This document shows positions 29,972 to 45,284 of a stretch of 64,000 bases of DNA, in pieces (the first letter of the stretch is position 1; every line of letters begins with the position of its first letter). The notes below the pieces were generated by a model, which made no database searches, was not told the origin of the DNA, and saw nothing but the letters and a program-made list of their open reading frames with translations. The stretch lies in the NCBI GenBank assembly GCA_020249045.1, contig JADCGK010000015.1:4944-68943 (forward strand). The letters are read 5' to 3'. The translations under genes and the position numbers were made by a program. The DNA comes from Azospirillum sp. Lineage in GTDB: Bacteria; Pseudomonadota; Alphaproteobacteria; CACIAM-22H2.

Positions 29972-31267
29972 ATGCACAACCTGTCCCGCCGCAAGCTTCT
30001 CGCCGCCTCGGCCGCCGCCGCAGGCACCCTCGCCGCGCCCGGCTACCTGCGCGCGCAGTCGCAGACCGTCGAGTTGTCGGTCCAGTATTCGATTCCCGTG
30101 TTGTTCAAGGATCTCATCGAGAAGCTCGTCGCCGGGTTCAACTCGGCCAATCCCTCGATCCGCGTGTCGTTGCGCGCGCCCGAACTCGGCTACGAAGAGA
30201 TCATGCAGCGCAATCTGCGCGACGCCATCACCAACACTTTGCCGGACGTCGCGTTCCACGGTCTGAACCGCCAGCGCACACTCGACGAGCGGCAGATCCC
30301 TGTCGATCTGCGGCCGTTCATGGCGGGCGACCCCGAGACGCCGTCGCTCGGCTTCTCCGACGCGCTGCTTTCGCTCGGCCGCGTGGGCGCCAAACAGACG
30401 GGCGTCGGCTTCGCGCTGTCGACGCCGATCCTCTACTACAACGCCGAATTGCTGCGCGCGGCGGGCGGTAACCCCGAGCGCCTGCCCGAATCTTGGGACG
30501 AATTGCTGCGCTTGGCCGCGGCGATCCACAATCCCGGTCGGTCGCACACCGGCATGTTCTTCGACTGGACGATCACCGGCAACTGGTCGTGGCAGGGCCT
30601 CGTCTTTTCGCACGGCGGCTCGATGCTCAACGCCGAGGAAACGCGCGTCGCCTTCAACGAAGAGCCCGGGATGCGCGCGATCCGGCTGATGCGCCGCATG
30701 CTCGACGACGGTCGCATGCCCGACATCCAGCCGGCCACGATGTTCCAGGACTTCCTGGCCGGCCGGATGGGCATCGCCATGCAGTCGACGGCCCAACTTG
30801 GCCGCTTCAATCGCGAGATCGGCGGCCGCTTCGGGCTGGTGTGCGGGCGTTACCCGCTTTCCGCGCCGACCGCGCGTCTTCCCTCGGGGGGCAACGTCGC
30901 GATGATGTTCACCAAGGACGCCGCAAAACAGCGCGCCGCCTGGCAGTTCATCAAGTATTGCTGCGGCCCCATCGGCGCCACCGAAATGGTCCGCGCCACC
31001 GGCTACGTTCCTGCGACCACGGTGCCCGCGACGCGCGAGGACATGCTGGCCGGATTCTATCGCGACAACCCCAATCACATGATCGCAATCCGCCAACTCG
31101 ACGTGCTGACCGGTTGGTACGCCTTCCCCGGCCAGAACGCGCTTCGCATCACCGACGTGATCAACGACCACCTCCAGACGGTCGTCAACAAGTCGCGGGA
31201 ACCGGAAGCCGCGATGGCGAGCATGGCGCAGGCGGTCCAAGGTCTCCTGCCGCGGCGCGCGGGTTGA
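29972..31267 (+). CDS. ABC transporter extracellular solute-binding protein (family 1), Tat signal
   Basis: It opens with MHNLSRRKLLAASAAAAGTLAAPGYLRA and is 431 aa long, an SBP_bac_1-like size. Confidence 0.85.
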   Translation: MHNLSRRKLLAASAAAAGTLAAPGYLRAQSQTVELSVQYSIPVLFKDLIEKLVAGFNSANPSIRVSLRAPELGYEEIMQRNLRDAITNTLPDVAFHGLNRQRTLDERQIPVDLRPFMAGDPETPSLGFSDALLSLGRVGAKQTGVGFALSTPILYYNAELLRAAGGNPERLPESWDELLRLAAAIHNPGRSHTGMFFDWTITGNWSWQGLVFSHGGSMLNAEETRVAFNEEPGMRAIRLMRRMLDDGRMPDIQPATMFQDFLAGRMGIAMQSTAQLGRFNREIGGRFGLVCGRYPLSAPTARLPSGGNVAMMFTKDAAKQRAAWQFIKYCCGPIGATEMVRATGYVPATTVPATREDMLAGFYRDNPNHMIAIRQLDVLTGWYAFPGQNALRITDVINDHLQTVVNKSREPEAAMASMAQAVQGLLPRRAG

Positions 31268-31291: not shown

Positions 31292-32149
31292 ATGCGTCTG
31301 GCGGTCGTCACCGACATCCACCACGGACGGGTCACGTTCGTGAAACAGGGGCCGCGCGCGCTCGGCTTGCTCGAGGCCGCCCTGCGCCGGGCGCGCGAGG
31401 CCAAGGTCGACGCGGTCGTCGAACTCGGCGACCGCATCTCGGACGTCGATGCGGCGGCCGATTTCGCCCTGGAGAGCGAAGTCGGCCGCGTTTTCGCCGA
31501 GAGCGGCCTCGCGCGGCATCACATCTGCGGCAACCACGATCGCGCGCATCTTTCCGCCGATCGCAACGCCGTGGCTTTGAACGCCCCGTTGGGCACGCGG
31601 GCGGTCGAACTCGGCGACATTCGGTTGGCGTTCTGGGAGCCGGATGTGTCGCTGTCGCGCGCGCGGGGCTTTTCGCTCGCGCCGGGCGACCTCGAATCGC
31701 TGCGCGATCTGTTGGGACGAAGCGATCGGCGTACGATCCTGTTCAGTCACGCGCCCCTATCCGGCCACTCGATGCGCGGGAATTACTGGTTCGAGAACAA
31801 TCCCGCGCACGCGACCTACGCCCAAATCGACGACATCCGAAAAATCCTTGCCGAGGCGCCGTGCCCGCTGCTCGCGATCGCCGGTCATGTGCATTGGAAT
31901 TCGGTCGCCGACGTCGACGGCACGACCCACTTGACGCTCCACTCGCTGAGCGACAGTACGTTCAGCCATCCAGAGCCGTCGGGCGCCTTCGGCTGGTTGA
32001 CGGTCGAAGCCGATCACGTCTTATGGCGGGTCGACGGTCTCTCGCCGGTCGCGATGGAGCTCCCGTTTCCAGCGGCGAAATCGAGCCGCCCGGCGACATT
32101 GCCGCGCTTTTCCGACCTGGCGAAGGGTGCTGACCTGATCTCCGCCTAA
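31292..32149 (+). CDS. Metallophosphoesterase (calcineurin-like)
   Basis: …VVTDIHHG…, …GDRISD…, …GNHDR… and …GHVHWN… are metallophosphatase motifs. Confidence 0.7.
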   Translation: MRLAVVTDIHHGRVTFVKQGPRALGLLEAALRRAREAKVDAVVELGDRISDVDAAADFALESEVGRVFAESGLARHHICGNHDRAHLSADRNAVALNAPLGTRAVELGDIRLAFWEPDVSLSRARGFSLAPGDLESLRDLLGRSDRRTILFSHAPLSGHSMRGNYWFENNPAHATYAQIDDIRKILAEAPCPLLAIAGHVHWNSVADVDGTTHLTLHSLSDSTFSHPEPSGAFGWLTVEADHVLWRVDGLSPVAMELPFPAAKSSRPATLPRFSDLAKGADLISA

Positions 32150-32463
32150 CGCGCGGCGGGCTCCGGTGGCGGGGGAAGTTCGCCGAGCGCGGCAAGGCCC
32201 AGGGCACAGCCGCAAAACGGGCAATCGCTGGCCAAGGCCAGATCGCGGGCCTGGGTCTCGGGCAGGCCGCGGCCCTCCAGTTCGGCGATCATCGCATCGA
32301 TCTGGCGCCGGTGTTCGTTGCGCGCTTCGCAAGCGGCGATCACGAGCCGCTGGCGTGGGGCGTCCATTTCCTCGATGCGCAAGGCCAACGCCGCCGGCGC
32401 AACGGCCGGGACGGCGGCCAAACCCAACGCGGTACGGAGCATCTGACGGCGGGTGTTCGACAT
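32146..32463 (-). CDS. Small Tat-signal protein with CxxC motif (hypothetical)
   Basis: MSNTRRQMLRTALGLAAVPAVAPAALA followed by …CPFCGC…. A good RBS (GGAGG) precedes it, and it converges on the previous gene with a 4-nt overlap. Confidence 0.5.
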   Translation of the reverse strand: MSNTRRQMLRTALGLAAVPAVAPAALALRIEEMDAPRQRLVIAACEARNEHRRQIDAMIAELEGRGLPETQARDLALASDCPFCGCALGLAALGELPPPPEPAAR

Positions 32464-32560
32464 GGGGCCTCCGGGCTATCCGATTAATATAGGGCCGTTA
32501 TCCGGGCTTGCCAAATCCCCAGCGGACCGCCACATACCCCCGGTCACTGTTTTGTCCCCC

Positions 32561-33280
32561 ATGCCCCTGGTTCGCATGCCCTTCCGGCGTTTACTGGCTG
32601 TTCTCCTGGCCCTGGCCTTTACCGCCGCCATTTTCGCGGCGCCTGCATCGGCCGCCGGTCAGGCGATGCGCGGCGTGCCGCCCGAGGGGCGCTTGGAATT
32701 CTCGGTCGTCAAGTCCGGGGCCGAAATCGGCCGGCACGCGATCCGTTTCTCCGAGAAAGACGGCGCCTTGATCGTCGATATCGAGGCGAGTTTGCGCGTG
32801 CGCTTCGCCTTCGTCACGGTCTACCGCTACGCCCAGCGTACGCGGGAAACCTGGCGCGACGGGGCGCTGGTGGCGTTCGAAAGCGATATCGACGACAACG
32901 GCACGCCCTTTCGTGTGCGCGCCGAGCTGCGCGAGGGCGCGCTGCACGTGAACGGACACGAGGAAAAGCTGGCGCTTGCCCGCGGGACGCATCCGTTGAG
33001 CTATTGGAATCCGGATTTGATGCGTCAATCCAAAGGGATCGACCTGCAGTGGGGGTCGCTCGCCGAACTCGACGTCGCCGAACGGGGCATCGAACGGCGT
33101 AAGGTGCGCGGCGCCGAGGTCGAAACCCGGCGCTTCAACATGAAGGGCACGGAAGTGAAGGCCGGCAAGCGCCAGCCCAAACCCTGGCTGGATGTCGACG
33201 CGTGGTACACGGCCGAAGGCAAGCTGGTCGGCATGGCGTTCCATTATCGCGGCTTCGATTTCGACTACGTGCTGCAGTGA
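32561..33280 (+). CDS. Hypothetical secreted protein (DUF6134/DUF3108-like)
   Basis: A signal peptide (…MPFRRLLAVLLALAFTAAIFAAPASAAGQA) with a beta-rich, conserved-looking remainder. Confidence 0.55.
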   Translation: MPLVRMPFRRLLAVLLALAFTAAIFAAPASAAGQAMRGVPPEGRLEFSVVKSGAEIGRHAIRFSEKDGALIVDIEASLRVRFAFVTVYRYAQRTRETWRDGALVAFESDIDDNGTPFRVRAELREGALHVNGHEEKLALARGTHPLSYWNPDLMRQSKGIDLQWGSLAELDVAERGIERRKVRGAEVETRRFNMKGTEVKAGKRQPKPWLDVDAWYTAEGKLVGMAFHYRGFDFDYVLQ

Positions 33281-33311
33281 ACCGTCCGGCGGGCGGGGGC
33301 GTATCGTGACC

Positions 33312-34046
33312 ATGGAAATCGCACCCGTCTGGATCACCGGCGCCTCGTCGGGCATCGGCCGCGGCCTCGCGCTCAAACTGGCGCGCGAAGGCCGCAAGGT
33401 CGTCGTCTCTGCCCGCTCGGCCGAAGCGCTTGCCGATTTGGCGCGCGAACACCCCAACCTTGCCGCCTGGCCGCTCGATACGACCGACGCCGACGCATGC
33501 GCGGCGGCCATCGCCGGAATCGAAGCCGCGCACGGCAAGATCGCCCTCGCCGTGCTCAACGCCGGCACGCATATCCCCACTCCGGCCGCCGATTTCCGGA
33601 TCGCCGACGCCAAACGGCTGATCGACGTCAACCTGACGGGCACCGTCAACGCCCTGGCCCCGCTGTTGGGCCGCCGCACGCGGCACATCGCGATCGTCGC
33701 CTCGGTCGCCGGCTATTCGGGTTTGCCGACGGCCGCGATCTACGGCGCCACCAAAGCGGCCCTCATCAACATGTGCGAGGCGCTGAAGCCCGAGTGCGAC
33801 GCGCTGGGCATCAAGCTCCAACTCGTCGATCCCGGCTTCGTCCGCACGCCGCTGACGGACAAGAACGAGTTTCCGATGCCGTTCCTGATGGAGCTCGACG
33901 CGGCGGTCGACGCGTTCGCGCGCGGGCTCGCCGCCGACAGGTTCGAAATCGTCTTCCCGCGCCGCTTCGCCCTCATCCTGAAATTCTTGCGTTTGCTCCC
34001 TTACGGGCTCTATTTCCGGCTCGTCCGCCGCATGACGGGAGTTTGA
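33312..34046 (+). CDS. Short-chain dehydrogenase/reductase (SDR)
   Basis: TGASSGIGRG Rossmann motif and the catalytic YGATK. Confidence 0.85.
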   Translation: MEIAPVWITGASSGIGRGLALKLAREGRKVVVSARSAEALADLAREHPNLAAWPLDTTDADACAAAIAGIEAAHGKIALAVLNAGTHIPTPAADFRIADAKRLIDVNLTGTVNALAPLLGRRTRHIAIVASVAGYSGLPTAAIYGATKAALINMCEALKPECDALGIKLQLVDPGFVRTPLTDKNEFPMPFLMELDAAVDAFARGLAADRFEIVFPRRFALILKFLRLLPYGLYFRLVRRMTGV

Positions 34047-34050
34047 CCGA

Positions 34051-34485
34051 ATGGAGCTGCGCGCCGCCTTGGACCGCTACGCCCGTTTCTACGAAACGAT
34101 GTCGCGGGCCGATCTCGAGACGCTCGACCGGTTCGTGACCGAGGACGTGCGCTTCAAGGATCCGTTCAACGACGTGACCGGCGTGGACGCGATGGCGCGG
34201 TGCCTCGCCATGGCCTACGATCACGGCACGCCGAAATTCGAGGTTCTGGACCGCGCCGCCTCCGAACGGGCGGGCTACCTGCTGTGGCGCTATACCTCCA
34301 CGCCGAAGGGCGCCAGCGTTCCCGCTTGGATCGTCGAGGGCATGAGCGAGGTCCGCTTCGCGCCCGACGGCCGGGCCGTCGAGCATATCGACCACTGGGA
34401 TTCGGGCGAGCAGTTCTACCTTCGCCTGCCGATCATCGGGTGGCTGGTCGGCAAGGTGCGCGCCAGGCTCAAGGTTGGCGCTTAA
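34051..34485 (+). CDS. NTF2-like/SnoaL-like family protein
   Basis: A 144-aa ORF immediately after the SDR, with a typical SnoaL-like size and hydrophobic pattern. Confidence 0.6.
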   Translation: MELRAALDRYARFYETMSRADLETLDRFVTEDVRFKDPFNDVTGVDAMARCLAMAYDHGTPKFEVLDRAASERAGYLLWRYTSTPKGASVPAWIVEGMSEVRFAPDGRAVEHIDHWDSGEQFYLRLPIIGWLVGKVRARLKVGA

Positions 34486-34996
34486 ACACGATCGTGACCG
34501 AACCGATCTGGATGCCCCAACGATAGACGTAGGCGCGGTTGATCAACACGCCATCCGATTGCAGGAACATCCAGTCGTCGAAGCGCACCTTCCAGCGCCC
34601 GTCGCCGACCTTCAAATTCAGGTAATAGCCGAAATTGAACGCGTTGCCGGCGGCCCGGCCTTGCGCTGCGCCGATCGCGTCCTCGGTCCGGCCTTCCCAA
34701 GCGTCCGGCCCCGTGCGCTTGAGGCGCCAGACGCGCCGCTCGCGCTCGCCGTCGGTGTAAAGGAACCGCTCGTCGAGGACGAACTCGTCGCCGACCCAAG
34801 CGCCCTCGATGTCGACCGCGAACTCGCGCCGCAGATTGCCGAGGCGGTCCTCGAAAATCCCCCACGCGCGGGTCGTGCCGAGGAAGTATTCCTCGATCTT
34901 CAGTTCGGGCGTCTTGCCCTTGAAATCTTCGATCTTCATGCCGCCGCATCCCGCCAAGGTCAGGGCCAGCGCGAGGCCCAAGAGAATCCGTTTCAT
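34469..34996 (-). CDS. DUF3833-family lipoprotein
   Basis: MKRILLGLALALTLAGCGG (lipobox) plus conserved …FFEGTWRAWGIF…-like core. The start overlaps the stop of the upstream MFS gene. Confidence 0.65.
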   Translation of the reverse strand: MKRILLGLALALTLAGCGGMKIEDFKGKTPELKIEEYFLGTTRAWGIFEDRLGNLRREFAVDIEGAWVGDEFVLDERFLYTDGERERRVWRLKRTGPDAWEGRTEDAIGAAQGRAAGNAFNFGYYLNLKVGDGRWKVRFDDWMFLQSDGVLINRAYVYRWGIQIGSVTIVFKRQP

Positions 34997-36345
34997 GCCG
35001 ACATCGTCCTCGCTTCGATCCGCGCACGCAACGCGCCTTGCGCGCGCGCGTCGAGCGGAAAGTTCCAGATGACCGCCACGGCCGCCAATTTGAAGGCGAC
35101 CGGCACCCAAGCATATAGAACGGCGAGCGCGAAAAGCCCGTCGCCCGTGCCCGCGCCGCGCGCGTAGCCGGCGAACTCGAGGGCGGGAAAAGCGAGTGCC
35201 GGCGCCAACGCCAGCGCAAGCTTGGTCGCGACCGACCACAGTGCGAAGTAAAGACCCGCGCGCGCCGCCCCGGTTTCGGCCGTTTCCGCGTCGATCGCGT
35301 CGGCCTGCATCGAGGCGGGCAGCGACAGATCCGCGCCGAGGCAGAAGCCCGTCGCCACGCAGATCGCGGCGAACCAGATCCCATCCCCCGCCCCCAGCAG
35401 CGGCGCCGGCAGGAAGGCAAGACAGCTCGCCAGCATCGCCACGCACCAGGCGCGGTGCTTGCTGGTGCGCCGGGCGTAGGCGAGCCAGAACGGCACGGAG
35501 GCCAGCCCGCACAGGAAATAGATCAGCAAGAACGCGCCTTCCTGCCCTTGCGCGTCGAGCACATCACCCGCGTAGAGCAAAAACAACGTGGCAGGCAGCG
35601 CGTTGGCCACACCGTTGACGAGGTAGCTTGCGATCAGCCGCCGGAACGGCAGATTGGCGCGCAACGCGCCGAGGCCCGCACGCCAGCCCGGCCAGGCCGA
35701 GGGTATTGCGGTCTTGGGCTCGGGCACGCGCAGCAGCAAAACGACGCCCGCAACCGGCAGCAGCACCGCACAGCTCCACAAGATCGCGCGCAATGCGGCT
35801 TCCTCGACCGGGCGGCCAGGTTCGCCGGGCAGCAGCACCGGCAAAGCCGAGGCGACCGCGACGCCCGCCACGGTCAGGCTTTCGCGCCACGCGGTCACGC
35901 GGTTGCGGGCGTGGTATTCGGTCGCGAGTTCAGCCCCCCACGCTTGATGCGGGATCTGCAGCATCGACCAGCCGAGATAGACGGCAAGCATCCAGAACAG
36001 CAGATAGCCCGCCCCCGCGCTCGCCGGCGGATCGAACAACGCCCAACTCGCCCCGATGGTCACCGGCAGCGCCGCCAGCAGCCAAGGCCGCCGCCGGCCG
36101 ATGGGCGTGCGCGTGCGGTCGGACAGGAACCCGATCGCCGGATCGACCGCGACGTCCCAAAGCCGCGCGACCAGCAGCACGAGGCCGATGGCCGACAGCG
36201 TCAACGTCGTCGCTTGCGCGTAATAGGCCGGCAGAAACACGAGCAACGGCAGCCCCAGCATCGCCGCGGGCAACGCCGGGGCGGCATAGGCGATCAAAAC
36301 GCCGGTCGTCGGCTCCCCCCGAGGCGCCCGGTCAGGGGCGGACAA
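34993..36345 (-). CDS. MFS transporter (MFS_2 / glycoside-pentoside-hexuronide-like)
   Basis: A 12-TM profile with a conserved D/R motif in loop 2-3 (…GFLSDRTRTPIGRRRPW…). Confidence 0.8.
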   Translation of the reverse strand: MSAPDRAPRGEPTTGVLIAYAAPALPAAMLGLPLLVFLPAYYAQATTLTLSAIGLVLLVARLWDVAVDPAIGFLSDRTRTPIGRRRPWLLAALPVTIGASWALFDPPASAGAGYLLFWMLAVYLGWSMLQIPHQAWGAELATEYHARNRVTAWRESLTVAGVAVASALPVLLPGEPGRPVEEAALRAILWSCAVLLPVAGVVLLLRVPEPKTAIPSAWPGWRAGLGALRANLPFRRLIASYLVNGVANALPATLFLLYAGDVLDAQGQEGAFLLIYFLCGLASVPFWLAYARRTSKHRAWCVAMLASCLAFLPAPLLGAGDGIWFAAICVATGFCLGADLSLPASMQADAIDAETAETGAARAGLYFALWSVATKLALALAPALAFPALEFAGYARGAGTGDGLFALAVLYAWVPVAFKLAAVAVIWNFPLDARAQGALRARIEARTMSA

Positions 36346-37537
36346 GGGCGACCTGCGTCACGTCCGTCGAACCCGAGCGGAACCCGGCCTCGCAATAGGC
36401 GAGGTAGAACTCCCACATGCGCTTGAAGCGGACGTCGAAACCCAGCGGCTCGATCTCCGTCCAGCGCGACTGGAAGCGCGCGTTCCATTCGGCGAGCGTG
36501 CGCGCGTAGTCGAGGCCGAAGAACTCCTGCTTGGCGAGCGTCAGGCCCGCGCGTTCGTATTCGCGCGCCAGAGCGGCGTTGGACGGCAGCATGCCGCCCG
36601 GGAAGATGTAGCGCTGGATGAAATCCACGCCCGAGCGGTAGGAGTCGAAGAACCGGTCGGCGATCGTGATGATCTGCAATGCCGCCCGCCCGCCCGGCGC
36701 CAGCGCCTCGCGCAACTTGCCGAAATAGGCGGGCCAGTATTTCTCGCCCACCGCCTCGAACATCTCGATCGACGCGATGCGGTCGTAGCGTCCCTCGACG
36801 TCGCGATAGTCGACGAACTTCGCCTCGATCCGTTCGCCCAGCCCTTCGCTTTGGACCTTGGCGCGGGTGTGCTCGAGCTGCTCCTTCGACACCGTGATTG
36901 CGGTGACTTGGGCCTGATATTCCTTGGCGAGATAGGCCGCAAAACCGCCCCAACCGCAGCCGATTTCGAGCACGCGCTGGCCGGGTTTCACGTCCAGCTT
37001 TTCGGCCATGCGGCGGAACTTGGCGCGCTGGGCATCCTCGAGATCGGCAATGCCCGGTTCGTAGACCGCCGAGGAATACGCCATCGTCGGGTCGAGCCAC
37101 CGCGAATAGAAGGCGTTGCCGAGGTCGTAGTGGTAGGCGATGTTCTTCTTCGATCCGGTGCGGGTATTCGCACGCAACGCATGCCACAAACGGCGCGCGA
37201 GGTTGAGCGCTGGCGCGAGCGCGCTGGCTTTGCCGTAATGCAGATCGTTGCATGCCGCTTCGTTGCGCGCGGCGAGTTCGAGCACGGCGGCCAAATCGGG
37301 CGTGTCCCAATCCCCGTCCATATAGGCTTCCGCGAACCCGACATTCCCGCCGAACATCAACCGGCGCGCGGCGCGGCGATGGCGGACGATCAGCTTGGCC
37401 GACGGCCCCTCGACCGCCCCTTGGAAAATCCGCGACGCCCCGCCCGGCAGGACGATTTCGAGACGCCCGATTTCGATGCGCTGGGCCGCGAGCAGCAAGG
37501 CCCCCATCGCCCAACCGTTCGAATCAGCTTCGCGCAT
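36332..37537 (-). CDS. cfa: Cyclopropane-fatty-acyl-phospholipid synthase
   Basis: SAM-binding VLEIGCGWGG and CFA synthase family similarity along its length. Confidence 0.9.
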   Translation of the reverse strand: MREADSNGWAMGALLLAAQRIEIGRLEIVLPGGASRIFQGAVEGPSAKLIVRHRRAARRLMFGGNVGFAEAYMDGDWDTPDLAAVLELAARNEAACNDLHYGKASALAPALNLARRLWHALRANTRTGSKKNIAYHYDLGNAFYSRWLDPTMAYSSAVYEPGIADLEDAQRAKFRRMAEKLDVKPGQRVLEIGCGWGGFAAYLAKEYQAQVTAITVSKEQLEHTRAKVQSEGLGERIEAKFVDYRDVEGRYDRIASIEMFEAVGEKYWPAYFGKLREALAPGGRAALQIITIADRFFDSYRSGVDFIQRYIFPGGMLPSNAALAREYERAGLTLAKQEFFGLDYARTLAEWNARFQSRWTEIEPLGFDVRFKRMWEFYLAYCEAGFRSGSTDVTQVALVRP

Positions 37538-38330
37538 GGCCGATTCCTCCCTCCGCCACCCCGGCGAGTTCGACGGCCGCAGCGGGAGGTGCGGGCCGGG
37601 GGTGGTACTTCGCGCCTTTGAGCCACAACTTAAGCGCCTCCCAATGAATCCCGACGATGACCTTGAGCGTCAAGAGGGGATAAGCGACGAACGCCTTGGC
37701 GAATTCGGCGTCGGCGAAGGGCGCGCGCTCGGCGACGTGTGTGGCGATCAACAACTCGCCCTCGGGGACGCTTTGCCGGATCAACATCGCGAAGCGGTCC
37801 TCGGGCGCGTCGACGCGGAAGCGATAGGTCGCGCGCATGCCGATGAAGGGCGAAACGTGGAAATTCTTCTCGGCACGCTGGACGACCGGCGCATCGGCTG
37901 TGCGGGCGGGATCGACCGGGATCAGATAGCCGTGCTGCTCGCCGAAGGTATTCTTGACCTCGTAGAGCATCGCGGCGAGCCGGCCGGCCGCGTCGTGGCA
38001 GAAATACACGGTCAGTGGGTTGAACGCGTAACCCAGGATGCGCGGAAAGCAATGGGCGTAGATCTTCGCACCCGCCGCCGCGAGGCCCGCGTCGGCCAGC
38101 CGCGCGCGAACCCAATGCAGCGCCGGAGTGCCGTCGCGCGCGCCGTGGTCGCGATCCTGGAACGAGAACAGCCGCGCGCGGTTGTAGCCGAACAACTTCG
38201 AGCGCGCGTCGAGGGCGGGCAGTTCCTCGAGATCGACGAGCATGGAAAACACGCGGTAGGCGAAGCGATGGCGGAACGGCCGCAAGCGGGCGTGCATCAC
38301 TTGACCAAAGTAAAGGCAGGATTGCGGCAT
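37524..38330 (-). CDS. DUF1365-family protein
   Basis: …VMHARLRPFRHRFAYRVFSMLVDLEEL… is the DUF1365 signature. It sits between the FAD oxidoreductase and cfa, as in known operons. Confidence 0.8.
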   Translation of the reverse strand: MPQSCLYFGQVMHARLRPFRHRFAYRVFSMLVDLEELPALDARSKLFGYNRARLFSFQDRDHGARDGTPALHWVRARLADAGLAAAGAKIYAHCFPRILGYAFNPLTVYFCHDAAGRLAAMLYEVKNTFGEQHGYLIPVDPARTADAPVVQRAEKNFHVSPFIGMRATYRFRVDAPEDRFAMLIRQSVPEGELLIATHVAERAPFADAEFAKAFVAYPLLTLKVIVGIHWEALKLWLKGAKYHPRPAPPAAAVELAGVAEGGIGHARS

Positions 38331-38343
38331 GGTGCTTCGAAGT

Positions 38344-39717
38344 CTACTCGGCCGCCGCGGGTAACGGCAGGGGGGCGGACGCCACCGCCGTTCCCCAAGG
38401 CCGGCGCACGCCGAAGGTTTCGGCCGCGGCAAGACCGCTGCGCAACCCGTCCTCGTGGAAGCCATAGCCGGTCCAAGCCCCCGCGAAGACGAGTCCGCGA
38501 GCACCCTGGATTTCGGGCAGCCGCGCTTGGGCGGCGAGTGTGCCGGCGTCGAAGGCGGGATGCATGTATTCCCACGCGCCCAGTACCGTCTCGGGGCGGG
38601 GCGCCCGGATCGGATTGAGCGACACGAACAGCGGAAAATCCGCGTCGAGATTCTGAAGGCGGTTCATCCAATAGGTGACCGAGACCAGCCGTTCGCCGGT
38701 CATGTCGGTCCCCTCGCGCTCCGCGAGATAGTTCCAGCTCGCCCACGCGAGTTTGCGTTTGGGCATCAGGGCGAGATCCTGATGCAGCACCGCAAGATTG
38801 GGCTGGAAGGTGAAGGCGCCCAGGATGTCGCGCTCCTGCGGCGTGGGGTTCTCGAGCAGCGCCAAGCTCTCGTCCGCGTGGCCCGCGAGAACGACGCGAT
38901 CGAAGCGCCGCACTTTGCCGTCCTGACCGCGCACTTTCACCCCGCCCGGCTCCACCCGCACGCCCGCGGCCCCGTTCTCGCGCCCCAGCGAAGGACCGAT
39001 ATCGGCAAGGATCGCCTTCACGTATTCGCGCGAGCCGCCTTTGACCGTGCGCCACAGCGGCCGGTCGAAGATCTGCAACAGGCCGTGGTTGCGGAAGAAC
39101 GCGCAGAAGCTGCGCGCCGGGAATTCGAGCATTTTCGAGGGCGGGCAGGACCAGATCGCCGCCGCCATCGGAATCAGATGGTTTTCCACGAATTCGCGCG
39201 AATATCGGCCCCGGATCAGGAATTCGCCCAAGGTCGGGCCTCCGACGCCACCCGCGGCCATCGCCGTGCCGTCCCGGAAAAAGCGCATCGCGTCGCGCAG
39301 CATGCGCCAATGGCCGGGGCGCAGCAGATTCGACGGTTGCGCGAACAATCCGGTCCACGTGCCGCCCGAATACTCGACGCGGCCGCGGTCGATCGACGCG
39401 GCGAAGGACATGTTCGAGGTTTCGCTCGCCACGCCCAAGCGATCGAACAATGCGATCAGATTGGGATAGGTCGCTTCGTTGTAGACGATGAAGCCGGTGT
39501 CGACCGGGATCGCGCGCGAGCTGCCGTCCTTGGCCTTGGCGACGACCTCGACCGTATGGGCGTGGCCGCCCAAGCGCGCTTCCTTCTCGTAGAGCGTCAC
39601 CCGATGTCGCTTGGACAGCAGCCACGCCGCACCGAGCCCCGAAACGCCCGCGCCGATCACGGCGATATCCATCGGGCGCGACCCGTCCGGGCCGGCGAAA
39701 TCGTCGTGCGGCGTCAT
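38344..39717 (-). CDS. NAD(P)/FAD-dependent oxidoreductase (amine oxidase-like)
   Basis: An N-terminal dinucleotide motif IAVIGAGVSGLGAA…YEKEARLGGH. Confidence 0.85.
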   Translation of the reverse strand: MTPHDDFAGPDGSRPMDIAVIGAGVSGLGAAWLLSKRHRVTLYEKEARLGGHAHTVEVVAKAKDGSSRAIPVDTGFIVYNEATYPNLIALFDRLGVASETSNMSFAASIDRGRVEYSGGTWTGLFAQPSNLLRPGHWRMLRDAMRFFRDGTAMAAGGVGGPTLGEFLIRGRYSREFVENHLIPMAAAIWSCPPSKMLEFPARSFCAFFRNHGLLQIFDRPLWRTVKGGSREYVKAILADIGPSLGRENGAAGVRVEPGGVKVRGQDGKVRRFDRVVLAGHADESLALLENPTPQERDILGAFTFQPNLAVLHQDLALMPKRKLAWASWNYLAEREGTDMTGERLVSVTYWMNRLQNLDADFPLFVSLNPIRAPRPETVLGAWEYMHPAFDAGTLAAQARLPEIQGARGLVFAGAWTGYGFHEDGLRSGLAAAETFGVRRPWGTAVASAPLPLPAAAE

Positions 39718-39718
39718 T

Positions 39719-41131
39719 TCAAGCGGCCTCTTTCAATGATTGGAACGCCGCCAACGCGCGCGCGCGCGCTTCGCCGTGATCCACGATGGGGTTGGGATAG
39801 GTGACGCCGAGTTTCACGCCCGCGCGCGCCAGCACGTCGGCCGGCGCCTCCCACGGCGTGTGGATGTGTTCGGCGGGCAGACGGGCGAGTTCGGGCACGA
39901 AGCGGCGGACGTAAGCGCCGTCGGGATCGAATTTGGCGCCCTGCAGCATGGGATTGAAGATTCGGAAATAGGGTGCGGCATCCGCCCCGCAGCCCGCGAC
40001 CCATTGCCAGCTCGCCGCGTTGTTGGCGAGATCCGCGTCGACCAGCGTGTCCCAGAACCAATCCTCGCCCGCGCGCCAGGGTTGGAGCAGATGCTTGACG
40101 AGGAACGACGCCGCGATCATCCGAACGCGATTGTGCATCCAGCCGGTTTGCCACAACTCGCGCATGCCCGCGTCGACGATGGGATAACCGGTCGCACCTT
40201 TGCGCCACGCGCGCAAATGCGCGGGATTCTCGCGCCAGGGGAAATCGCGGAATTCGGTGCGCAGCGCCGTCTCGGGCAGATCGGGCAATTGGAACAGCAG
40301 ATGATGCGAGAACTCGCGCCACCCGAGTTCGGCGACGAACTTGGTCGACGACGCCCCCGCATGGAAGCATTGGCGCGGCGAGATTTCGCCGAAATGCAGA
40401 TGCGGCGACAGCCGCGACGTCGCCTCGATATCCGGCCGGTCGCGCGAAGACGCGTAACCCGACAGCGCCGTCGCCACGAATGAAGCGAGCCGCGCTTGCG
40501 CACCCGCCTCACCCGGCGTCCAAACCGAAAAGCCGCCCGCCCAATCGGGCTTGGTCGGCAGCAGCGCCCAAGCATCGAGCGCATCCGACGCCGGCCATGC
40601 GCCCGGCGCCGACGCCTTCTTGGGGGCGGGCACGGCCGCCGACGGCGGTTCGGCGGCAAGACACGCCTTCCAGAACGGCGTAAACACCCGGAAGGGCGTG
40701 CCGGTCTTCGACACGATGGTCCACGGCTCGAACAGCAAATTCGCGTTGAAGCTTTTGGCGACGAGACCGCGCGCCTCCAGATCGGCTTTGATCGTCTTGT
40801 CGCGCGCGACCGCGAAAGGCTCGTAGCAGCGGTTCCAGTGCACGCCCGCGGCTTTGGTTTCGCCGATCAACGCATCCAAGCACGCCGCGGATCTGCCCCG
40901 GCGCAAGATCAGCTTCAGCCCGAGGTCGCCGAGATCGCGCGCGAGCGACGCGAGCGAATGATGCAACCACCAGCGGCTGGCGCCGCCCATCCGCCACACG
41001 CCCGGCGCGTCGTCGTCGAGGATGTAGACCGGCACCACGGGCGCGCCGGTCGCGATCGCCTCGCGCAAAGCCGGATTGTCGGAAAGCCGCAAATCCTGAC
41101 GGAACCAGACCAGAAGAGGCGAAAGGGACAT
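39719..41131 (-). CDS. phrB: Deoxyribodipyrimidine photolyase (CPD photolyase)
   Basis: An FAD-binding C-terminal domain (…TGYPIVDAGMRELWQTGWMHNRVRM…WQWVAGCGADAAPYFRIFNP…). Confidence 0.9.
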   Translation of the reverse strand: MSLSPLLVWFRQDLRLSDNPALREAIATGAPVVPVYILDDDAPGVWRMGGASRWWLHHSLASLARDLGDLGLKLILRRGRSAACLDALIGETKAAGVHWNRCYEPFAVARDKTIKADLEARGLVAKSFNANLLFEPWTIVSKTGTPFRVFTPFWKACLAAEPPSAAVPAPKKASAPGAWPASDALDAWALLPTKPDWAGGFSVWTPGEAGAQARLASFVATALSGYASSRDRPDIEATSRLSPHLHFGEISPRQCFHAGASSTKFVAELGWREFSHHLLFQLPDLPETALRTEFRDFPWRENPAHLRAWRKGATGYPIVDAGMRELWQTGWMHNRVRMIAASFLVKHLLQPWRAGEDWFWDTLVDADLANNAASWQWVAGCGADAAPYFRIFNPMLQGAKFDPDGAYVRRFVPELARLPAEHIHTPWEAPADVLARAGVKLGVTYPNPIVDHGEARARALAAFQSLKEAA

Positions 41132-41165
41132 GCGGACGGAGAGCGTTACCGGTTGAGGATGAACG

Positions 41166-41195
41166 TCTTTACGCCCCGGGACCCGGGACGGATCA
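41166..41195 (-). promoter_or_regulatory. Putative ECF sigmaE(RpoE)-type promoter upstream of the photolyase operon
   Basis: The minus strand reads TGATCC-N17-GTAAAGA ~35 nt upstream of the photolyase ATG. This matches the TGATCC…TAAGA pattern reported for singlet-oxygen sigmaE promoters. Confidence 0.4.
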
Positions 41196-41903
41196 CTCGC
41201 GCGGCGGCTTCGGAAGGCGCGCGATCGGCGCCAAGCGGTCGGCCGGGAACAAATGCAGGCGATCCCGACCCGTCATCAATACCCGAAACCGCGTGCGTCC
41301 GAACAGGCCCGCGATCGCCCGATCGAGCGCATCGAGACCGCCGGCATACGCGCCGAACGCCGGCATCACCATCCGCCGTCCGTCATGCGCGAAACACGGC
41401 GCCACGACCCGCCCTGCAGACGTGGTGACGCAGGCCTTCGGATGGAAGTGCCCGACGATCTCGCCCGGCGATAAAACCGCACCGGCCGGTGCGTGACGCA
41501 GAACGAGGCGCCCTTCCGCGACCTCGGTTACCGCGCGGCCCCCCAAAACCGACGGTATCGCGGGATCGTGGTTCCCCAGCACCCACACCCAGTCGACCCC
41601 ATCCATCAGCCGGACGAGCATCTCCCGATCCGCAGGCGCGATCCGATCGGCCGCGCCGGTATCGTGGAACGAGTCCCCCAGACAAACGACGCGCGCGGGC
41701 GTGTAGCGCCGGATCAAACGCTGGAGTTCGCCCAACGTGGCGCGGGTGTCGTAGGGCGGCAGCATCACGCCCTTGGCGGCGTACGCCGAGCCTTTCTCCA
41801 AATGCAGGTCCGCCACGACCAAGGTTTTGACCGCCGGCCAATAAAGCGCGCCCGAGGGATCGGCGAACAGCGCCGTGTCTTCGATCGTGATCCGGGCGTG
41901 CAT
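41193..41903 (-). CDS. pdeM: Ligase-associated DNA damage response endonuclease PdeM (metallophosphoesterase)
   Basis: …LVVADLHLEKG… and …VCLGDSFHD…VLGNHD… give the PdeM pattern, and it sits immediately downstream of the Lhr-type helicase. Confidence 0.8.
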   Translation of the reverse strand: MHARITIEDTALFADPSGALYWPAVKTLVVADLHLEKGSAYAAKGVMLPPYDTRATLGELQRLIRRYTPARVVCLGDSFHDTGAADRIAPADREMLVRLMDGVDWVWVLGNHDPAIPSVLGGRAVTEVAEGRLVLRHAPAGAVLSPGEIVGHFHPKACVTTSAGRVVAPCFAHDGRRMVMPAFGAYAGGLDALDRAIAGLFGRTRFRVLMTGRDRLHLFPADRLAPIARLPKPPRE

Positions 41904-44335
41904 CAGAAAAGTTCGCTCTGCGGGTCTTCGGCGGTCGCTTCGTCGATCAGGGCTTGCGCGGCCGCTTCGTCGGCCAACGCGTCTTCGATGGCCGCACCGT
42001 AGATCGCTTCGCGGCCCACTTCCAGCAGCACCGGAACGGCCAATGGCGAAACGCGCGCCAAGCGCCGATGCCGGATCGCGCCGCGGCAACCGCGCAGCAT
42101 CGCGGCCAAACGCTCCAGATCGACCAGGCCGGTCGCCGCATCGGCCCTTGTCGCGCGCAACAGGACGTGATCGGGTTCGTGCTTGCGCAGCACGTCGTAG
42201 ATCAGGTCCGACGAGAAGGTCACCTGCCGGCCACTTTTCTCCTGGCCGGGATGGCGCCGCTCGATCAGCCCCGCGATCACCGCGACGTTGCGGAACGCGC
42301 GTTTGAGCATCGAGGAATCGGCGAGCCACTCCTCGAGTTCGTCGCCGAGAATGTCCTCGGCGAAGAGCTCGGCCGGCCGTTCGGCCGGCTTCAGCGACCA
42401 CACCGCGATCGAGTAATCGGACGCGACGAACCCCAAAGGCCGCAACCCGGTCCGTTCCATCCGCCGTGTCAGCAGCAGACCCAAGGTCTGATGCGCGTTG
42501 CGTCCGGCGAAGCAATAGGCGACCAGAAACCAGCGTCCATGGCGCGGAAAGGTTTCGATCAGCAATCCGGTCCGTTCGGGCAGGGAAGACCGCCGGCGCT
42601 GCAATCCCAGCCATTCCTTCACGTCGCTCGGGAACCCGCGCCACGCGGCGGGATCGGCGAGCAGACCGCGCACCCGGTCGGCGAGTTCGGCCGTGAAGGG
42701 CATCCGCCCGCCGGCGAAGACCGGCACTTTGGGCTGGTCGTCCTTCGCGCGGGAGACTTCGACCGTCGTCTCGCGCAGGCCTTCGTAGCGCAGCACCTGA
42801 CCCGCGAAGGCGAAACTGTCGCCGGGGGCGAGTTGCACGACGAAGTTCTCCTCGATCCGGCCGAGCCGTTTGCCGCGCCGGAAGGCGACGTTGAGCATCG
42901 GCTCCTCGACGATCGTGCCGACGTTGAGCCGGTACTGACGCACGACGAGCGCGCCGGCAACCGTCCAGCGCCCGGCGTCGTCGCGTTTGAGGCGCTTGAA
43001 GCGCTCGTAGGCGCCGAGGGCGTAGCCGCCATCGGCCACGAAGCCGAGCACGCGGTCGAAATCCCCGCGCGTCAACCCGGCATAGGGTGCCGCCCGGCGC
43101 ACATTGGCGTAGGTCGCCTCGGCGTCGAACGGCGCCGAGCACGCGCGCGCCAGAAGATGCTGCGCGAGCACGTCGAGCGCGCCCGGCGGCATCCGCAAGG
43201 GCTCGATCTCGCCCGCTTCGAGGGCCGCGATCGCCGCGCGGCATTCGAGCATTTCGAAGCGGTTGGCGGGCACGAGGATGGCGCGCGACGGCTCGTCGAG
43301 CCGGTGATTGGCCCGGCCCACGCGCTGGATCAGCCGCGCGGCCCCTTTGGGCGCGCCGATCTGAACGACCAGATCGACGTCGCCCCAGTCGATCCCCAGA
43401 TCGAGCGAGGATGTGGCGACCACGGCGCGCAGCTTGCCCGCGGCCATCGCCGCCTCGACCTTGCGCCGCTGTTCGGGCGACAGCGAACCGTGGTGCAGGG
43501 CGATGGGAAGATTGTCGGCGTTGAGCTTCCAAAGCTCGCGGAAGCAGATTTCCGCCTGCGCGCGCGTGTTGACGAACACGATCGCCGAGCGCGCGGCCTT
43601 GAGCGCCAGGTAAACCTCCGGCAGCGCGTGCACGGCCATGTGCCCGCCCCACGGGATGCGCGCTTCGGGCACCAGGATCGAGACCCGCGCTTGGGCCCCC
43701 GCTCCCCCGCGCACGATTTCGGGCGTCGCATCCATTCCGGCGCCGAGATAGCCCGCGAGCTTCGGCGGTTCGGCGACCGTGGCCGAAAGGCCGATGCGGC
43801 GCGCGCGCGGGGCGATGTCGGCCAGCCGCGCGAGATCGAGGGCAAGCAGATCGCCGCGCTTGGTCCCGGCCAAAGCGTGGATCTCGTCGATCACGACCGC
43901 ACGCAATCGGGCGAACGTGGCGGGCGCATCGGGGTATGACAGCAGCAGCGCCAGCGATTCGGGTGTCGTCATCAGGATGTGCGGCGGGGATTTGCGCTGG
44001 CGAACGCGTTTGGCTTGGGGCGTGTCGCCGGTCCGGCTTTCAGCCCGCAGGGGCAGGTCCATCTCGGCGATGGGTCGCTCGACGTTGCGGTGCACGTCGA
44101 TGGCGAGCGCCTTCAAGGGCGAGACGTAAAGCGTGTGCAACCCCGGTGCGGGGTCGGCGGCCAGTTCGACGAGGCTCGGCAGAAACCCCGCCAAAGTCTT
44201 GCCCGCGCCCGTAGGCGCGACCAGCAAGGCCGACCGGCCGGCGCGCGCGTGGTCGAGCAGTGCGGCCTGGTGCGCGCGCAAGCGCCAGCCCCGCGCCGCC
44301 ATCCAGCCCGCGAAGGGTTCGGGCAGGCCGCTCAC
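41903..44335 (-). CDS. Ligase-associated DNA damage response DEXH-box helicase (Lhr-core-like)
   Basis: Walker A (APTGAGKT), DEIH box (VVIDEIHAL) and helicase C motifs, with a C-terminal Lhr extension. The start is approximate (GTG/ATG between 44302 and 44467). Confidence 0.85.
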   Translation of the reverse strand: MSGLPEPFAGWMAARGWRLRAHQAALLDHARAGRSALLVAPTGAGKTLAGFLPSLVELAADPAPGLHTLYVSPLKALAIDVHRNVERPIAEMDLPLRAESRTGDTPQAKRVRQRKSPPHILMTTPESLALLLSYPDAPATFARLRAVVIDEIHALAGTKRGDLLALDLARLADIAPRARRIGLSATVAEPPKLAGYLGAGMDATPEIVRGGAGAQARVSILVPEARIPWGGHMAVHALPEVYLALKAARSAIVFVNTRAQAEICFRELWKLNADNLPIALHHGSLSPEQRRKVEAAMAAGKLRAVVATSSLDLGIDWGDVDLVVQIGAPKGAARLIQRVGRANHRLDEPSRAILVPANRFEMLECRAAIAALEAGEIEPLRMPPGALDVLAQHLLARACSAPFDAEATYANVRRAAPYAGLTRGDFDRVLGFVADGGYALGAYERFKRLKRDDAGRWTVAGALVVRQYRLNVGTIVEEPMLNVAFRRGKRLGRIEENFVVQLAPGDSFAFAGQVLRYEGLRETTVEVSRAKDDQPKVPVFAGGRMPFTAELADRVRGLLADPAAWRGFPSDVKEWLGLQRRRSSLPERTGLLIETFPRHGRWFLVAYCFAGRNAHQTLGLLLTRRMERTGLRPLGFVASDYSIAVWSLKPAERPAELFAEDILGDELEEWLADSSMLKRAFRNVAVIAGLIERRHPGQEKSGRQVTFSSDLIYDVLRKHEPDHVLLRATRADAATGLVDLERLAAMLRGCRGAIRHRRLARVSPLAVPVLLEVGREAIYGAAIEDALADEAAAQALIDEATAEDPQSELF

Positions 44336-44414
44336 GCGCCCGCGAGCGGCCGAGGACGAACGCGGTGCGTCCCACGGACGACCGGACCGGCGAGCGCGCG
44401 CAATCCCAACACCG

Positions 44415-44828
44415 TCATCGCGCGGCCCCCGGATTGAACGCGACCGCCACGTCGTCCGGCGGGGCACCGCCCGTCTCCCGGATCAAGAACGCGGGCCGCC
44501 CGGCGATCATCCGGAAGCTCGCCGTCGCCCCGGGCGGTACGGGCCCCGACTGCACGCGGTTGCGCGCGTCCGCGCAAAAGGCGGTCAACGCGGCGGCGAT
44601 CTCGCCGGCGTCGAAGTCGATGCGCCGTTCCCCGCCCTCGTCGGTCGCCACGATCAGGACGACGCGCAGCGTCCGCGGTTCGCATTGGACGCCCAGGATG
44701 CGGCCCGGCGGCAAAGGGTCCTTAAGCGCGCGCCGGAACGCGGTCAGCGCATTGACGAGTTCGCTTTCGCGCAGCAAGAGCGCGCGGTAGGCCTCGGTGC
44801 CGGGCGGCAAGGTTCGGGGCTTGGCCAT
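44415..44828 (-). CDS. Hypothetical protein (137 aa)
   Basis: Non-repetitive composition, co-oriented and immediately upstream of the helicase. No motif recognised. Confidence 0.35.
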   Translation of the reverse strand: MAKPRTLPPGTEAYRALLLRESELVNALTAFRRALKDPLPPGRILGVQCEPRTLRVVLIVATDEGGERRIDFDAGEIAAALTAFCADARNRVQSGPVPPGATASFRMIAGRPAFLIRETGGAPPDDVAVAFNPGAAR

Positions 44829-44846
44829 CGCGCGCCCTCGTCTGCC

Positions 44847-45215
44847 CTATGCCGCCGCTTCGGACAGGATTTCGAGGGTCAGCGCCTCGGGTTCAACCGG
44901 ACCCGCGACATGCGCCGACAGCGCCAAGCGCCCCTCGATCAGATGCAGATCGCGCGCCGCACGCGGCGGCAGCACCACGCCCACGTCGTGGCAGCGCATC
45001 GCCAAGGCGGCCACCACGGAGTCCTTGTCGTAGACGAAGCGCTTGCGGTCGGGCGGCGCGCCGAAGGACAGCGCGCAGCCCAACGTATCGGGATCGATCT
45101 CGAACAGATCGGCCGGCGTCGTCGGGGTCGACAGGCCGCGCCGTCGGTCGTAGGCGACCAACGCGCCGCGCACGTCGCGCCAGGAAAAAATCACGAATCG
45201 GTACTCGCTCGCCAT
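44847..45215 (-). CDS. Hypothetical protein (~122 aa)
   Basis: MASEYRFVIFSWRDVRGALVAYDRRRG…, co-oriented with the previous ORF. No motif recognised. Confidence 0.35.
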   Translation of the reverse strand: MASEYRFVIFSWRDVRGALVAYDRRRGLSTPTTPADLFEIDPDTLGCALSFGAPPDRKRFVYDKDSVVAALAMRCHDVGVVLPPRAARDLHLIEGRLALSAHVAGPVEPEALTLEILSEAAA

Positions 45216-45284
45216 CCGACGCCCCCAGGTCCGATTTCGCGGCACCCGGCGGGCGGCGTCAAGCGGATCGAACGCGAAGCGCCC

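Follow-up and report, generated by a model that had tools for sequence, protein, structure and literature searches.

Genes of the phrB locus and their coupling

The DNA analysed here, hereafter the window, is a 64 kb stretch of an Azospirillum sp. contig. The source is a MAG of an uncultured, Tagaea-like alphaproteobacterium from freshwater, which bears the label 'Azospirillum sp.' or 'Tagaea sp.' in NCBI; database records of several of its proteins identify it as belonging to Tagaea-like MAGs. The minus strand of the window carries a compact run of six genes headed by a photolyase-family gene (phrB) and preceded by two DNA-damage response genes; a short set of plus-strand genes converges on this run from the other side.

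41903..44467, minus strand: Lhr-type ligase-associated DEXH helicase, lhr (TIGR04121, 1095 bits vs a cut-off of 850)
41193..41903, minus strand: pdeM, ligase-associated DNA damage response endonuclease (TIGR04123, 215 bits vs a cut-off of 150)
39719..41131, minus strand: phrB, class I CPD photolyase-family protein, 470 aa (PF00875 and PF03441)
38344..39717, minus strand: FAD-dependent amine-oxidase-like oxidoreductase, UfaD-like (RSP1091/RPA2571 type; PF01593 and PF13450, Amino_oxidase/NAD_binding_8)
37524..38330, minus strand: DUF1365 protein, UfaO-like (RSP1090/RPA2570 type; PF07103, E = 1e-81)
36332..37537, minus strand: CMAS-family SAM-dependent fatty-acyl methylase, cfa/UfaM-like (PF02353, E = 1e-86)
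34993..36345, minus strand: MFS_2 (GPH-family) transporter, start codon TTG (PF13347, E = 9e-79)
34469..34996, minus strand: DUF3833 lipoprotein, last gene of the operon (PF12915, E = 2e-61; LAGC lipobox)
34051-34485, plus strand: SnoaL_2 protein (domain match)
33312-34046, plus strand: SDR, RSP1087-like (start codon probable)
about 32561-33280, plus strand: DUF6134 protein, ahead of the SDR and SnoaL_2 genes (domain match)

Pfam and NCBIfam searches confirmed the identities that a preliminary description had given to four of these genes, i.e., the photolyase, the amine-oxidase-like flavoprotein, the DUF1365 protein and the CMAS (cfa) protein. An exact look-up of the phrB product gave no database record. 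Orthologues of phrB, 53-71% identical, are present in 80 genomes; the photolyase/cryptochrome models of NCBIfam match the protein, all of them under their cut-offs. The methylase has a CMAS domain, with every CFA-synthase equivalog model of NCBIfam scoring under its cut-off, and its place in the gene order is that of ufaM (RPA2569) in R. palustris. Immediately ahead of it, the UfaD-like flavoprotein gene (PF01593/PF13450) and the UfaO-like DUF1365 gene (PF07103) are direct neighbours.

The six genes are tightly coupled. The flavoprotein gene starts 1 nt past the phrB stop and the DUF1365 gene 13 nt past the flavoprotein stop; the DUF1365 and methylase genes share 14 nt, as do the methylase gene and the MFS_2 gene with its TTG start, and the DUF3833 start overlaps the MFS_2 stop in an ATGA (-4 nt). 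Such spacing (+1, +13, -14, -14 and -4 nt) favours transcription of the six genes as one unit. A promoter scan found no internal sigma-70-like promoter within the operon, and terminator-like matches in the operon region were fewer than expected by chance. The operon had been outlined before as four genes spanning 36332-41195. The co-orientation and tight packing then described hold, but the extent has to be revised: as overlapping co-oriented genes run on through the MFS_2 and DUF3833 genes, the operon counts six genes and ends at 34469, not at 36332. The MFS_2 transporter occupies the same position in loci L001, L002, L003, L006, L011, L015, L018 and L024, among others.

Upstream, the lhr stop overlaps the pdeM start (ATGA), and these adjacent genes, both over their NCBIfam cut-offs, represent the helicase and phosphoesterase of the ligase-associated DNA damage response module; the ATP-dependent ligase and exonuclease genes are absent from beside lhr-pdeM at this locus. 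The next two ORFs upstream of lhr (44415-44828 and 44847-45245) have no Pfam match and are followed by an AcrB/HlyD efflux pair. No gene for a MerR/LitR regulator, a photoreceptor or any other regulator flanks the operon among the neighbouring genes.

An ECF11-type promoter motif at the pdeM-phrB junction

The gap of 61 nt between pdeM and phrB, together with the end of pdeM, contains the elements listed below; a second, weaker candidate lies on the convergent strand.

41190..41195, minus strand: -35 box TGATCC of an ECF11-type promoter (exact match to the consensus)
41174..41189, minus strand: 16-nt spacer GTCCCGGGTCCCGGGG (spacer sequences diverged among relatives)
41170..41173, minus strand: -10 box CGTA (exact match to the consensus), extended as CGTAAAGA to 41166
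41160..41164, minus strand: predicted transcription start zone (from the geometry of apparently leaderless relatives and the leader sequence)
33278..33303, plus strand: candidate weaker site TGAACC-N16-CGTA (one mismatch to the consensus)

From 41195 to 41170 the minus strand reads TGATCC-N16-CGTA, which is exactly the promoter consensus of ECF11 (RpoE/ChrR-type) sigma factors. The preliminary description had reported TGATCC-(17 nt)-GTAAAGA, a near-consensus ECF sigmaE promoter about 35 nt before the photolyase ATG and overlapping the 3' end of pdeM. All of this was borne out: the letters read exactly so (41195-41190 and 41172-41166), and in the published register, which designates the same site, the fit to the experimentally derived consensus is exact. 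The phrB ATG at 41131 lies 34 nt past GTAAAGA and 38 nt past CGTA, in the same orientation as the promoter, and the TGA of TGATCC is itself the stop codon of pdeM (41195-41193). The -10 form TAAGA, suggested for finding further sites, has to be abandoned, with zero matches in the window; the correct register is CGTA. The exact motif occurs once in the 64 kb, vs 0.11 copies expected from dinucleotide shuffles.

Given the CGTA-N8-ATG geometry of loci L001, L016, L054 and L062, transcription would start at 41160-41164, giving phrB a leader of about 30 nt, in which no clear Shine-Dalgarno sequence was found. Neither the leader nor the operon gave a match to an Rfam RNA element, and there are no tRNAs. 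The spacer (41174-41189) can fold into a short hairpin with no T-run behind it, which we rejected as a terminator; in its degree of structure the region does not exceed shuffled sequence (z = +1.1).

Both boxes are present upstream of phrB in 33 of the 80 orthologous loci from other species, with a spacer of 16 nt in nearly all of them. Among these 33 loci CGTA is invariant and the boxes as a whole nearly so, while the spacer and flank sequences have diverged. The motif precedes phrB in 18 of the 23 loci in which phrB and the flavoprotein gene are adjacent. Exact TGATCC-N16-CGTA sites number 47 in 1.42 Mb of related loci, vs 0.95-1.9 expected (an enrichment of about 25-50x), and almost all of them precede phrB or chrR/DUF6134-SDR units. 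The lhr-pdeM-phrB synteny is found in at least 13 related loci, and the fusion of stop codon and -35 box seen at pdeM recurs in the diverged relatives L001, L002, L006, L011 and L025; the boxes are also intact in loci without pdeM upstream (e.g., L003, L008, L012 and L020).

The same motif is found in relatives at chrR-like genes adjoining the cluster (L008, L012, L020, L023, L037, L040, L042, L049 and L055), and in L072 an rpoE-chrR pair adjoining the flavoprotein and DUF1365 genes stands behind TGATCC-N16-CGTT. In relatives, the cluster-side chrR-like genes have no sigma gene beside them ('orphans'), and the zinc-binding Cys motif is missing from several. Searching the window by tblastn with ChrR and sigmaE queries from related loci revealed no ECF sigma or ChrR gene, nor was one found in near-identical contigs that extend it by about 8 kb on the right and by about 7 kb on the left. 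In a ChrR profile search of a large protein database, the 120 matches listed were all of Ferrovibrio or Hyphomicrobiales type and none bore the label of this organism, a result with no bearing on the presence of chrR in this MAG.

On the convergent strand, the TGA of the candidate site TGAACC-N16-CGTA is the stop codon of the DUF6134 gene, and the site lies 8 nt ahead of the probable ATG of the SDR gene (33312). L001 and L006 keep a CGTA-N8/10-ATG arrangement ahead of their SDR gene as well. The perfect motif that several relatives have upstream of DUF6134 is absent from the window, where the search turned up just the site with one mismatch ahead of the SDR gene. In R. sphaeroides and P. syringae the SDR belongs to the core regulon (PMC6852236, PMC5507510).

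Comparison with described RpoE-ChrR regulons

The consensus TGATCC-N16-CGTA was established for ECF11 in P. syringae by ChIP-seq and qRT-PCR (PMC5507510), and the RpoE2-ChrR system of S. oneidensis uses TGATCC-N16-CGTAAT, with transcription starts mapped at rpoE2 and pgpD (PMC4336711). In P. syringae DC3000, the regulon of the RpoE-ChrR-type pair PSPTO_1043/1042 includes the phrB operon PSPTO_1121-1114, whose promoter, (T/a)GATCC-N16-CGTA, is bound by the sigma factor, is induced 14-fold and answers singlet oxygen and t-BOOH (PMC5507510). As in the window, that operon is led by phrB, contains genes for an amine-oxidase flavoprotein, a DUF1365-type protein and cfa, and has its promoter inside the preceding gene or at the end of that gene. 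The P. syringae operon differs in having the SDR gene inside it, whereas here this gene is on the convergent strand. The Azospirillum operon further differs in that its -35 box is TGATCC without a mismatch and is fused with the stop codon of pdeM, and in the addition of the MFS_2 transporter and the DUF3833 lipoprotein.

The sigmaE-ChrR core regulon of R. sphaeroides comprises rpoE-chrR, phrB (RSP_2143), cfaS/ufaM (RSP_2144) and RSP1091-1087 (PMC6852236, PMC7380195). Six of its families, i.e., photolyase, CMAS methylase, FAD oxidoreductase (UfaD), DUF1365 protein (UfaO), lipoprotein and SDR, are found here too, and both systems have the same type of promoter. The RpoE/ChrR regulon architecture proposed beforehand for the locus is supported. 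Its genes are the same set as the published core regulon phrB, cfaS, RSP1091/1090/1088/1087; the DUF3833 protein is probably, by analogy, the counterpart of the core-regulon 'lipoprotein' RSP1088. In R. sphaeroides, however, these genes are distributed over three loci, with rpoE-chrR divergent from RSP1091-1087, whereas here five of the families are united in one operon behind phrB, with no sigma or anti-sigma gene nearby.

Functions have been assigned to UfaD, UfaO and UfaM, UfaO being a DUF1365 protein, and RSP1089 of R. sphaeroides is a dispensable methylase paralogue (PMC7380195). In R. palustris, RPA2571-2570-2569 (ufaD-ufaO-ufaM) encode a FAD desaturase, a DUF1365 oxygenase and a SAM methylase in the identical order (PMC7380195); the operon described here differs in having phrB upstream and the transporter and lipoprotein genes downstream, and its methylase is UfaM-like by domain and position. 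The S. oneidensis operon SO_3386-3379 (ybgA-phrB...cfa) likewise unites phrB and cfa (PMC4336711), but it is led by ybgA instead of phrB and its host is a gammaproteobacterium.

Probable regulation and function of the operon

We consider it probable that an ECF11 (RpoE/ChrR-type) promoter drives the six-gene operon 34469-41131 on the minus strand. With R. sphaeroides, P. syringae and S. oneidensis taken as models, the anti-sigma factor ChrR would be inactivated under stress from singlet oxygen, organic peroxides or light, and the freed sigma factor, presumably encoded in this genome, would direct RNA polymerase to TGATCC (-35) and CGTA (-10), 16 nt apart. Transcription starting about 8-10 nt past CGTA would then yield one polycistronic mRNA. 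Since their domains and order are the same as those of R. palustris ufaD-ufaO-ufaM, the flavoprotein, DUF1365 protein and methylase are best read as a furan fatty acid biosynthesis trio (ufaD/ufaO/ufaM-like). The mRNA would thereby join photoreactivation of UV-damaged DNA to the synthesis of methylated furan fatty acids for membrane phospholipids. Such furan lipids would scavenge singlet oxygen and, as in R. sphaeroides, could feed back on ChrR turnover.

A fortuitous match in GC-rich DNA would by itself explain one motif in 64 kb, which is not rare (11 of 100 dinucleotide shuffles of the window held one exact copy), but a correctly oriented match at most 65 nt upstream of phrB, a core-regulon gene, has a chance of about 6e-5 (arithmetic from the shuffle expectation). 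With the recurrence of the motif in 33 orthologous loci and the excess of exact sites, the comparative data in effect refute this explanation, to which we give a negligible probability. It is also very improbable that phrB and the genes behind it are mainly read through from lhr-pdeM as one long DNA-repair operon, the motif being silent or minor. Read-through could contribute, since the terminator scan detected no terminator between pdeM and phrB; the short gap, the spacer hairpin lacking a T-tail and folding no better than shuffled sequence, and the widespread lhr-pdeM-phrB synteny point the same way. Yet a silent site would not be expected to keep its boxes intact in highly diverged relatives, some of them without pdeM upstream, and the P. 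syringae counterpart, which lies inside the upstream gene, is a bound promoter with 14-fold induction (PMC5507510).

The promoter could instead be real and be read by another ECF sigma factor or circuit, e.g., an ECF11-like sigma without ChrR, or LitR/MerR-type light control. The sigma/ChrR search of the window and about 15 kb of flank, in which neither gene was found, is compatible with this, as are the orphan chrR-like genes of relatives, and V. cholerae is reported to use both MerR and ChrR in its blue-light responses (PMC5241685). The orphan genes, some without the Cys motif, suggest that the circuitry of this clade may differ from the R. sphaeroides paradigm, and the clade might use these ChrR-like proteins in a rewired circuit. 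Nevertheless, TGATCC-N16-CGTA is the consensus reported for ChrR-paired sigma factors (PMC5507510, PMC4336711), the ChrR-like genes of relatives bear the same motif, and the genes beside the operon include neither a MerR/LitR-type or other regulator nor a photoreceptor, so that another circuit seems unlikely.

The window and five relatives have the -35 box and the pdeM stop codon fused, and lhr-pdeM-phrB synteny is widespread in the clade. Together these features raise the idea that the Lhr-PdeM module for DNA damage makes up a conserved supra-operon with the operon for singlet-oxygen stress and photoreactivation. We regard this idea as rather doubtful. If it were true, the photo-oxidative stress response would have in Lhr-PdeM a functional partner so far unrecognised, and the sigmaE promoter would be modulated by RNA polymerase reading through the end of pdeM or by ribosomes terminating there.

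Judged from sequence comparison, the ECF11-type promoter is genuine and conserved in relatives, and it is an ordinary further case of a regulon known from other bacteria, which leaves the current understanding of the RpoE-ChrR system unchanged. The locus would add one more lineage, probably a non-phototrophic one, to the range of the RpoE-ChrR core regulon, which was predicted in 2008 and has been tested in a few model species. The compact six-gene set could also offer a natural and convenient cassette for making furan fatty acids. For the organism itself, the gain is a regulatory and functional annotation made with confidence, with a single stress promoter that would couple photoreactivation with furan fatty acid synthesis.

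The promoter motif upstream of phrB

On the minus strand, the sequence leading up to the start of phrB reads gcgagTGATCCgtcccgggtcccggggCGTAaagacgttc...ccgcATG and contains a putative promoter of the ECF11 (RpoE/ChrR) type, set among the following features.

Features of the phrB region
41903-44467, minus strand, Lhr-type helicase gene (TIGR04121, above the NCBIfam cut-off)
41193-41903, minus strand, pdeM (TIGR04123, above the NCBIfam cut-off)
41195-41190, minus strand, TGATCC, putative -35 box
41173-41170, minus strand, CGTA, putative -10 box in the published register (TGATCC-N16-CGTA)
41131, minus strand, ATG of phrB
39719-41131, minus strand, phrB (PF00875 and PF03441)
38344-39717, minus strand, amine-oxidase-like flavoprotein gene (PF01593)
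37524-38330, minus strand, DUF1365 protein gene (PF07103)
36332-37537, minus strand, CMAS-family methylase gene (PF02353)
34993-36345, minus strand, MFS_2 transporter gene, continuing the string past the methylase
34469-34996, minus strand, DUF3833 lipoprotein gene, after the transporter
about 32561-33280, plus strand, DUF6134 gene, first of the convergent unit
33312-34046, plus strand, SDR gene of the convergent unit
34051-34485, plus strand, SnoaL_2 protein gene of the convergent unit

The preliminary description had proposed a four-gene phrB operon behind a near-consensus sigmaE-like promoter, TGATCC-N17-GTAAAGA. This string is present, with GTAAAGA at 41172-41166, and in the register of the published consensus, TGATCC-N16-CGTA, the site is an exact match; the TAAGA form of the -10 box has no match in the window. 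In P. syringae, ChIP-seq and expression data on PSPTO_1043, a sigma factor of the RpoE-ChrR type, yielded this consensus (PMC5507510); TGATCC...CGTAAT promoters with mapped starts have been reported for RpoE2 of S. oneidensis (PMC4336711). The window holds a single exact match, versus 0.11 per window in dinucleotide shuffles, and its CGTA stands 38 nt from the phrB ATG. The promoter also overlaps the 3′ end of pdeM, as had been noted, the pdeM stop codon TGA (41193-41195) forming the first three bases of TGATCC. At the sequence level, the site has every feature expected of an ECF11-dependent promoter.

The probable transcription unit and its surroundings

From phrB to the lipoprotein gene, successive junctions measure +1, +13, -14, -14 and -4 nt; our scan revealed no sigma-70-like promoter inside this string, and terminator-like matches across the region number below the chance expectation. 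For these reasons, the transcription unit most likely comprises six genes (34469-41131). The operon first proposed (phrB, flavoprotein, DUF1365 and cfa genes) was correct in the shared orientation of its four members and in their families, confirmed with Pfam and NCBIfam, but too short, as the string runs on through the MFS_2 and DUF3833 genes. Since the scan detected no terminator between pdeM and phrB, and a hairpin in the spacer is without a T-tail, basal read-through from lhr-pdeM into phrB is possible.

At the far end, the 3′ ends of the DUF3833 (minus) and SnoaL_2 (plus) genes share 17 nt (34469-34485), with no terminator-like structure between them. The lhr and pdeM genes, of 'ligase-associated' families, lack a ligase or exonuclease gene beside them; the two ORFs that come next upstream (44415-45245, minus; 137 and 132 aa) are without Pfam matches, and beyond them lies an AcrB/HlyD efflux pair (45285-49593). 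In 32000-45500, the sole sigma-70-like promoter detected (32514-32486, minus) falls in an unusually AT-rich patch (32461-32560; ccgattaatatagggccgttatcc) that separates DUF6134 from a divergent 109-aa ORF (32146-32475, minus; Tat-signal-like N-terminus, no Pfam match).

Elsewhere, 750-823 (minus) matches the suhB/mmgR sRNA family (Rfam RF00519; 49.7 bits versus a gathering score of 41), and 28001-30000, over ABC-transporter permease and solute-binding-protein genes, is a strong AT-skew outlier (-0.28). Among contigs near-identical to the window, L087 (1-7400) diverges left of mlaE from L085 and L086 (1-7800) of the same species: at the position where the window-like L085 and L086 have a PAS_5 gene and its neighbours, L087 has an island that includes genes for a phage-type integrase, an SNase, AIPR (abortive infection) and a DDE transposase. 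The insertion, at the window's left edge, varies between strains.

Recurrence of the motif and its association with chrR

Our comparison drew 80 loci with a phrB relative (53-71% identity) from species-representative genomes; the closest is a Tagaea MAG (L001; 71% phrB identity). TGATC(C/T)-N15-17-CGTA occurs within 300-400 nt upstream of phrB in 33 of the 80 loci (exact TGATCC-N16-CGTA in 30 of these), including 18 of the 23 with a flavoprotein gene directly after phrB; spacers and flanks of the motif-bearing loci are unrelated sequences. Over 1.42 Mb, both strands, we counted 47 exact sites versus 1.9 expected from base composition and 0.95 from dinucleotide shuffles, and nearly all those not upstream of phrB precede the convergent unit or a chrR-like gene. 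This recurrence and enrichment exclude a chance match as the explanation of the motif.

In L001, L002, L006, L011 and L025, just like the window, the -35 hexamer opens with the three bases of the pdeM stop codon, so that the same bases serve as coding signal and promoter element in these six diverged genomes. The order lhr-pdeM-phrB is found in at least 13 loci, and the phrB promoter of P. syringae likewise lies inside the upstream neighbour gene (PMC5507510).

At phrB, the arrangement CGTA-N8-ATG in L001, L016, L054 and L062 (N10 in L028) implies leaderless mRNAs. L001 has an extra exact TGATCC-N16-CGTA (16136-16161, plus) between MFS and DUF3833, just a few nt ahead of where DUF3833 starts; an internal site of this kind is absent from the window. 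Within 33278-33314 (plus) of the window, a one-mismatch site, TGAACC-N16-CGTA, runs from the DUF6134 stop codon to 8 nt before the probable SDR ATG (33312), with the leaderless geometry of phrB in some relatives; it is a candidate for a second, weak promoter of the sigmaE type, serving the RSP1087-like SDR. Before the SDR genes of L001 and L006, CGTA-N8/10-ATG is retained, with a degenerate -35 box in each. Unlike several relatives, the window has no ECF11 motif upstream of DUF6134.

In nine loci (L008, L012, L020, L023, L037, L040, L042, L049 and L055), an exact site is followed first by a gene for a ChrR-like protein that combines an anti-sigma N-terminal domain with a cupin domain. L072 has an rpoE-chrR pair, divergent from flavoprotein-DUF1365 genes and preceded by TGATCC-N16-CGTT. 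These loci connect the motif with the ChrR system in this section of the Alphaproteobacteria. The nine chrR-like genes are 'orphan', each with its own TGATCC-N16-CGTA promoter, and most head an SDR(-SnoaL) unit beside the phrB/ufa (furan fatty acid) cluster, L055 and L008 being exceptions. No sigma gene adjoins the chrR-like gene in L042 (16208-16966) or L023 (15920-16716), the two with ORFs inspected. The H-x3-C-x2-C zinc motif is lacking in the proteins of L008, L023, L040, L049 and L055 and kept in the Ferrovibrio-type ones.

No ECF sigma or ChrR gene was detected in the window, and none, nor any further motif, in extensions of ~8 kb to the right and ~7 kb to the left along near-identical contigs. 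A ChrR profile search listed Ferrovibrio- and Hyphomicrobiales-type proteins among the 120 matches shown, which bears neither way on a chrR gene in this MAG. That the closest relatives have kept both boxes is indirect evidence for a cognate sigma factor in this lineage. The DNA comes from an uncultured MAG with exact protein matches to NCBI MCA3245292-MCA3245343 ('Azospirillum sp.'); MAGs nearly identical to it bear the label Tagaea sp.

Operon function and proposed regulation

The RpoE-ChrR core regulon includes phrB, cfaS (RSP_2144), RSP_1091 (amine oxidase), RSP_1090, RSP_1088 (lipoprotein) and RSP_1087 (SDR) (reviewed in PMC6852236). The window encodes one member of each family, all at a single locus, which bears out the likeness to RpoE/ChrR regulon architecture initially proposed. 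RSP1091 is the desaturase UfaD, RSP1090 is the DUF1365 oxygenase UfaO, which forms the furan ring, and UfaM is a SAM methylase that makes the precursor (PMC7380195). Because domain order equals that of ufaD-ufaO-ufaM in R. palustris (RPA2571-2570-2569), we read 36332-39717 as a putative furan fatty acid cassette, with the caveat that its methylase could be UfaM or of the type of RSP1089, the in-operon CMAS paralogue of R. sphaeroides that is dispensable for the furan pathway.

Upon stress, ChrR would be inactivated and the sigma factor would initiate at this promoter. By analogy with the apparently leaderless CGTA-N8-ATG relatives (L001, L016, L054 and L062), transcription would start near 41160-41164, giving a leader of ~30 nt, in which no Shine-Dalgarno sequence is evident. 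By analogy, the locus would work like the core regulon of R. sphaeroides and like the phrB-led operons known from P. syringae and S. oneidensis. Its particular traits are five core-regulon families and a transporter fused behind phrB, a -35 box fused to the pdeM stop codon and a DNA-repair (lhr-pdeM) module as neighbourhood.
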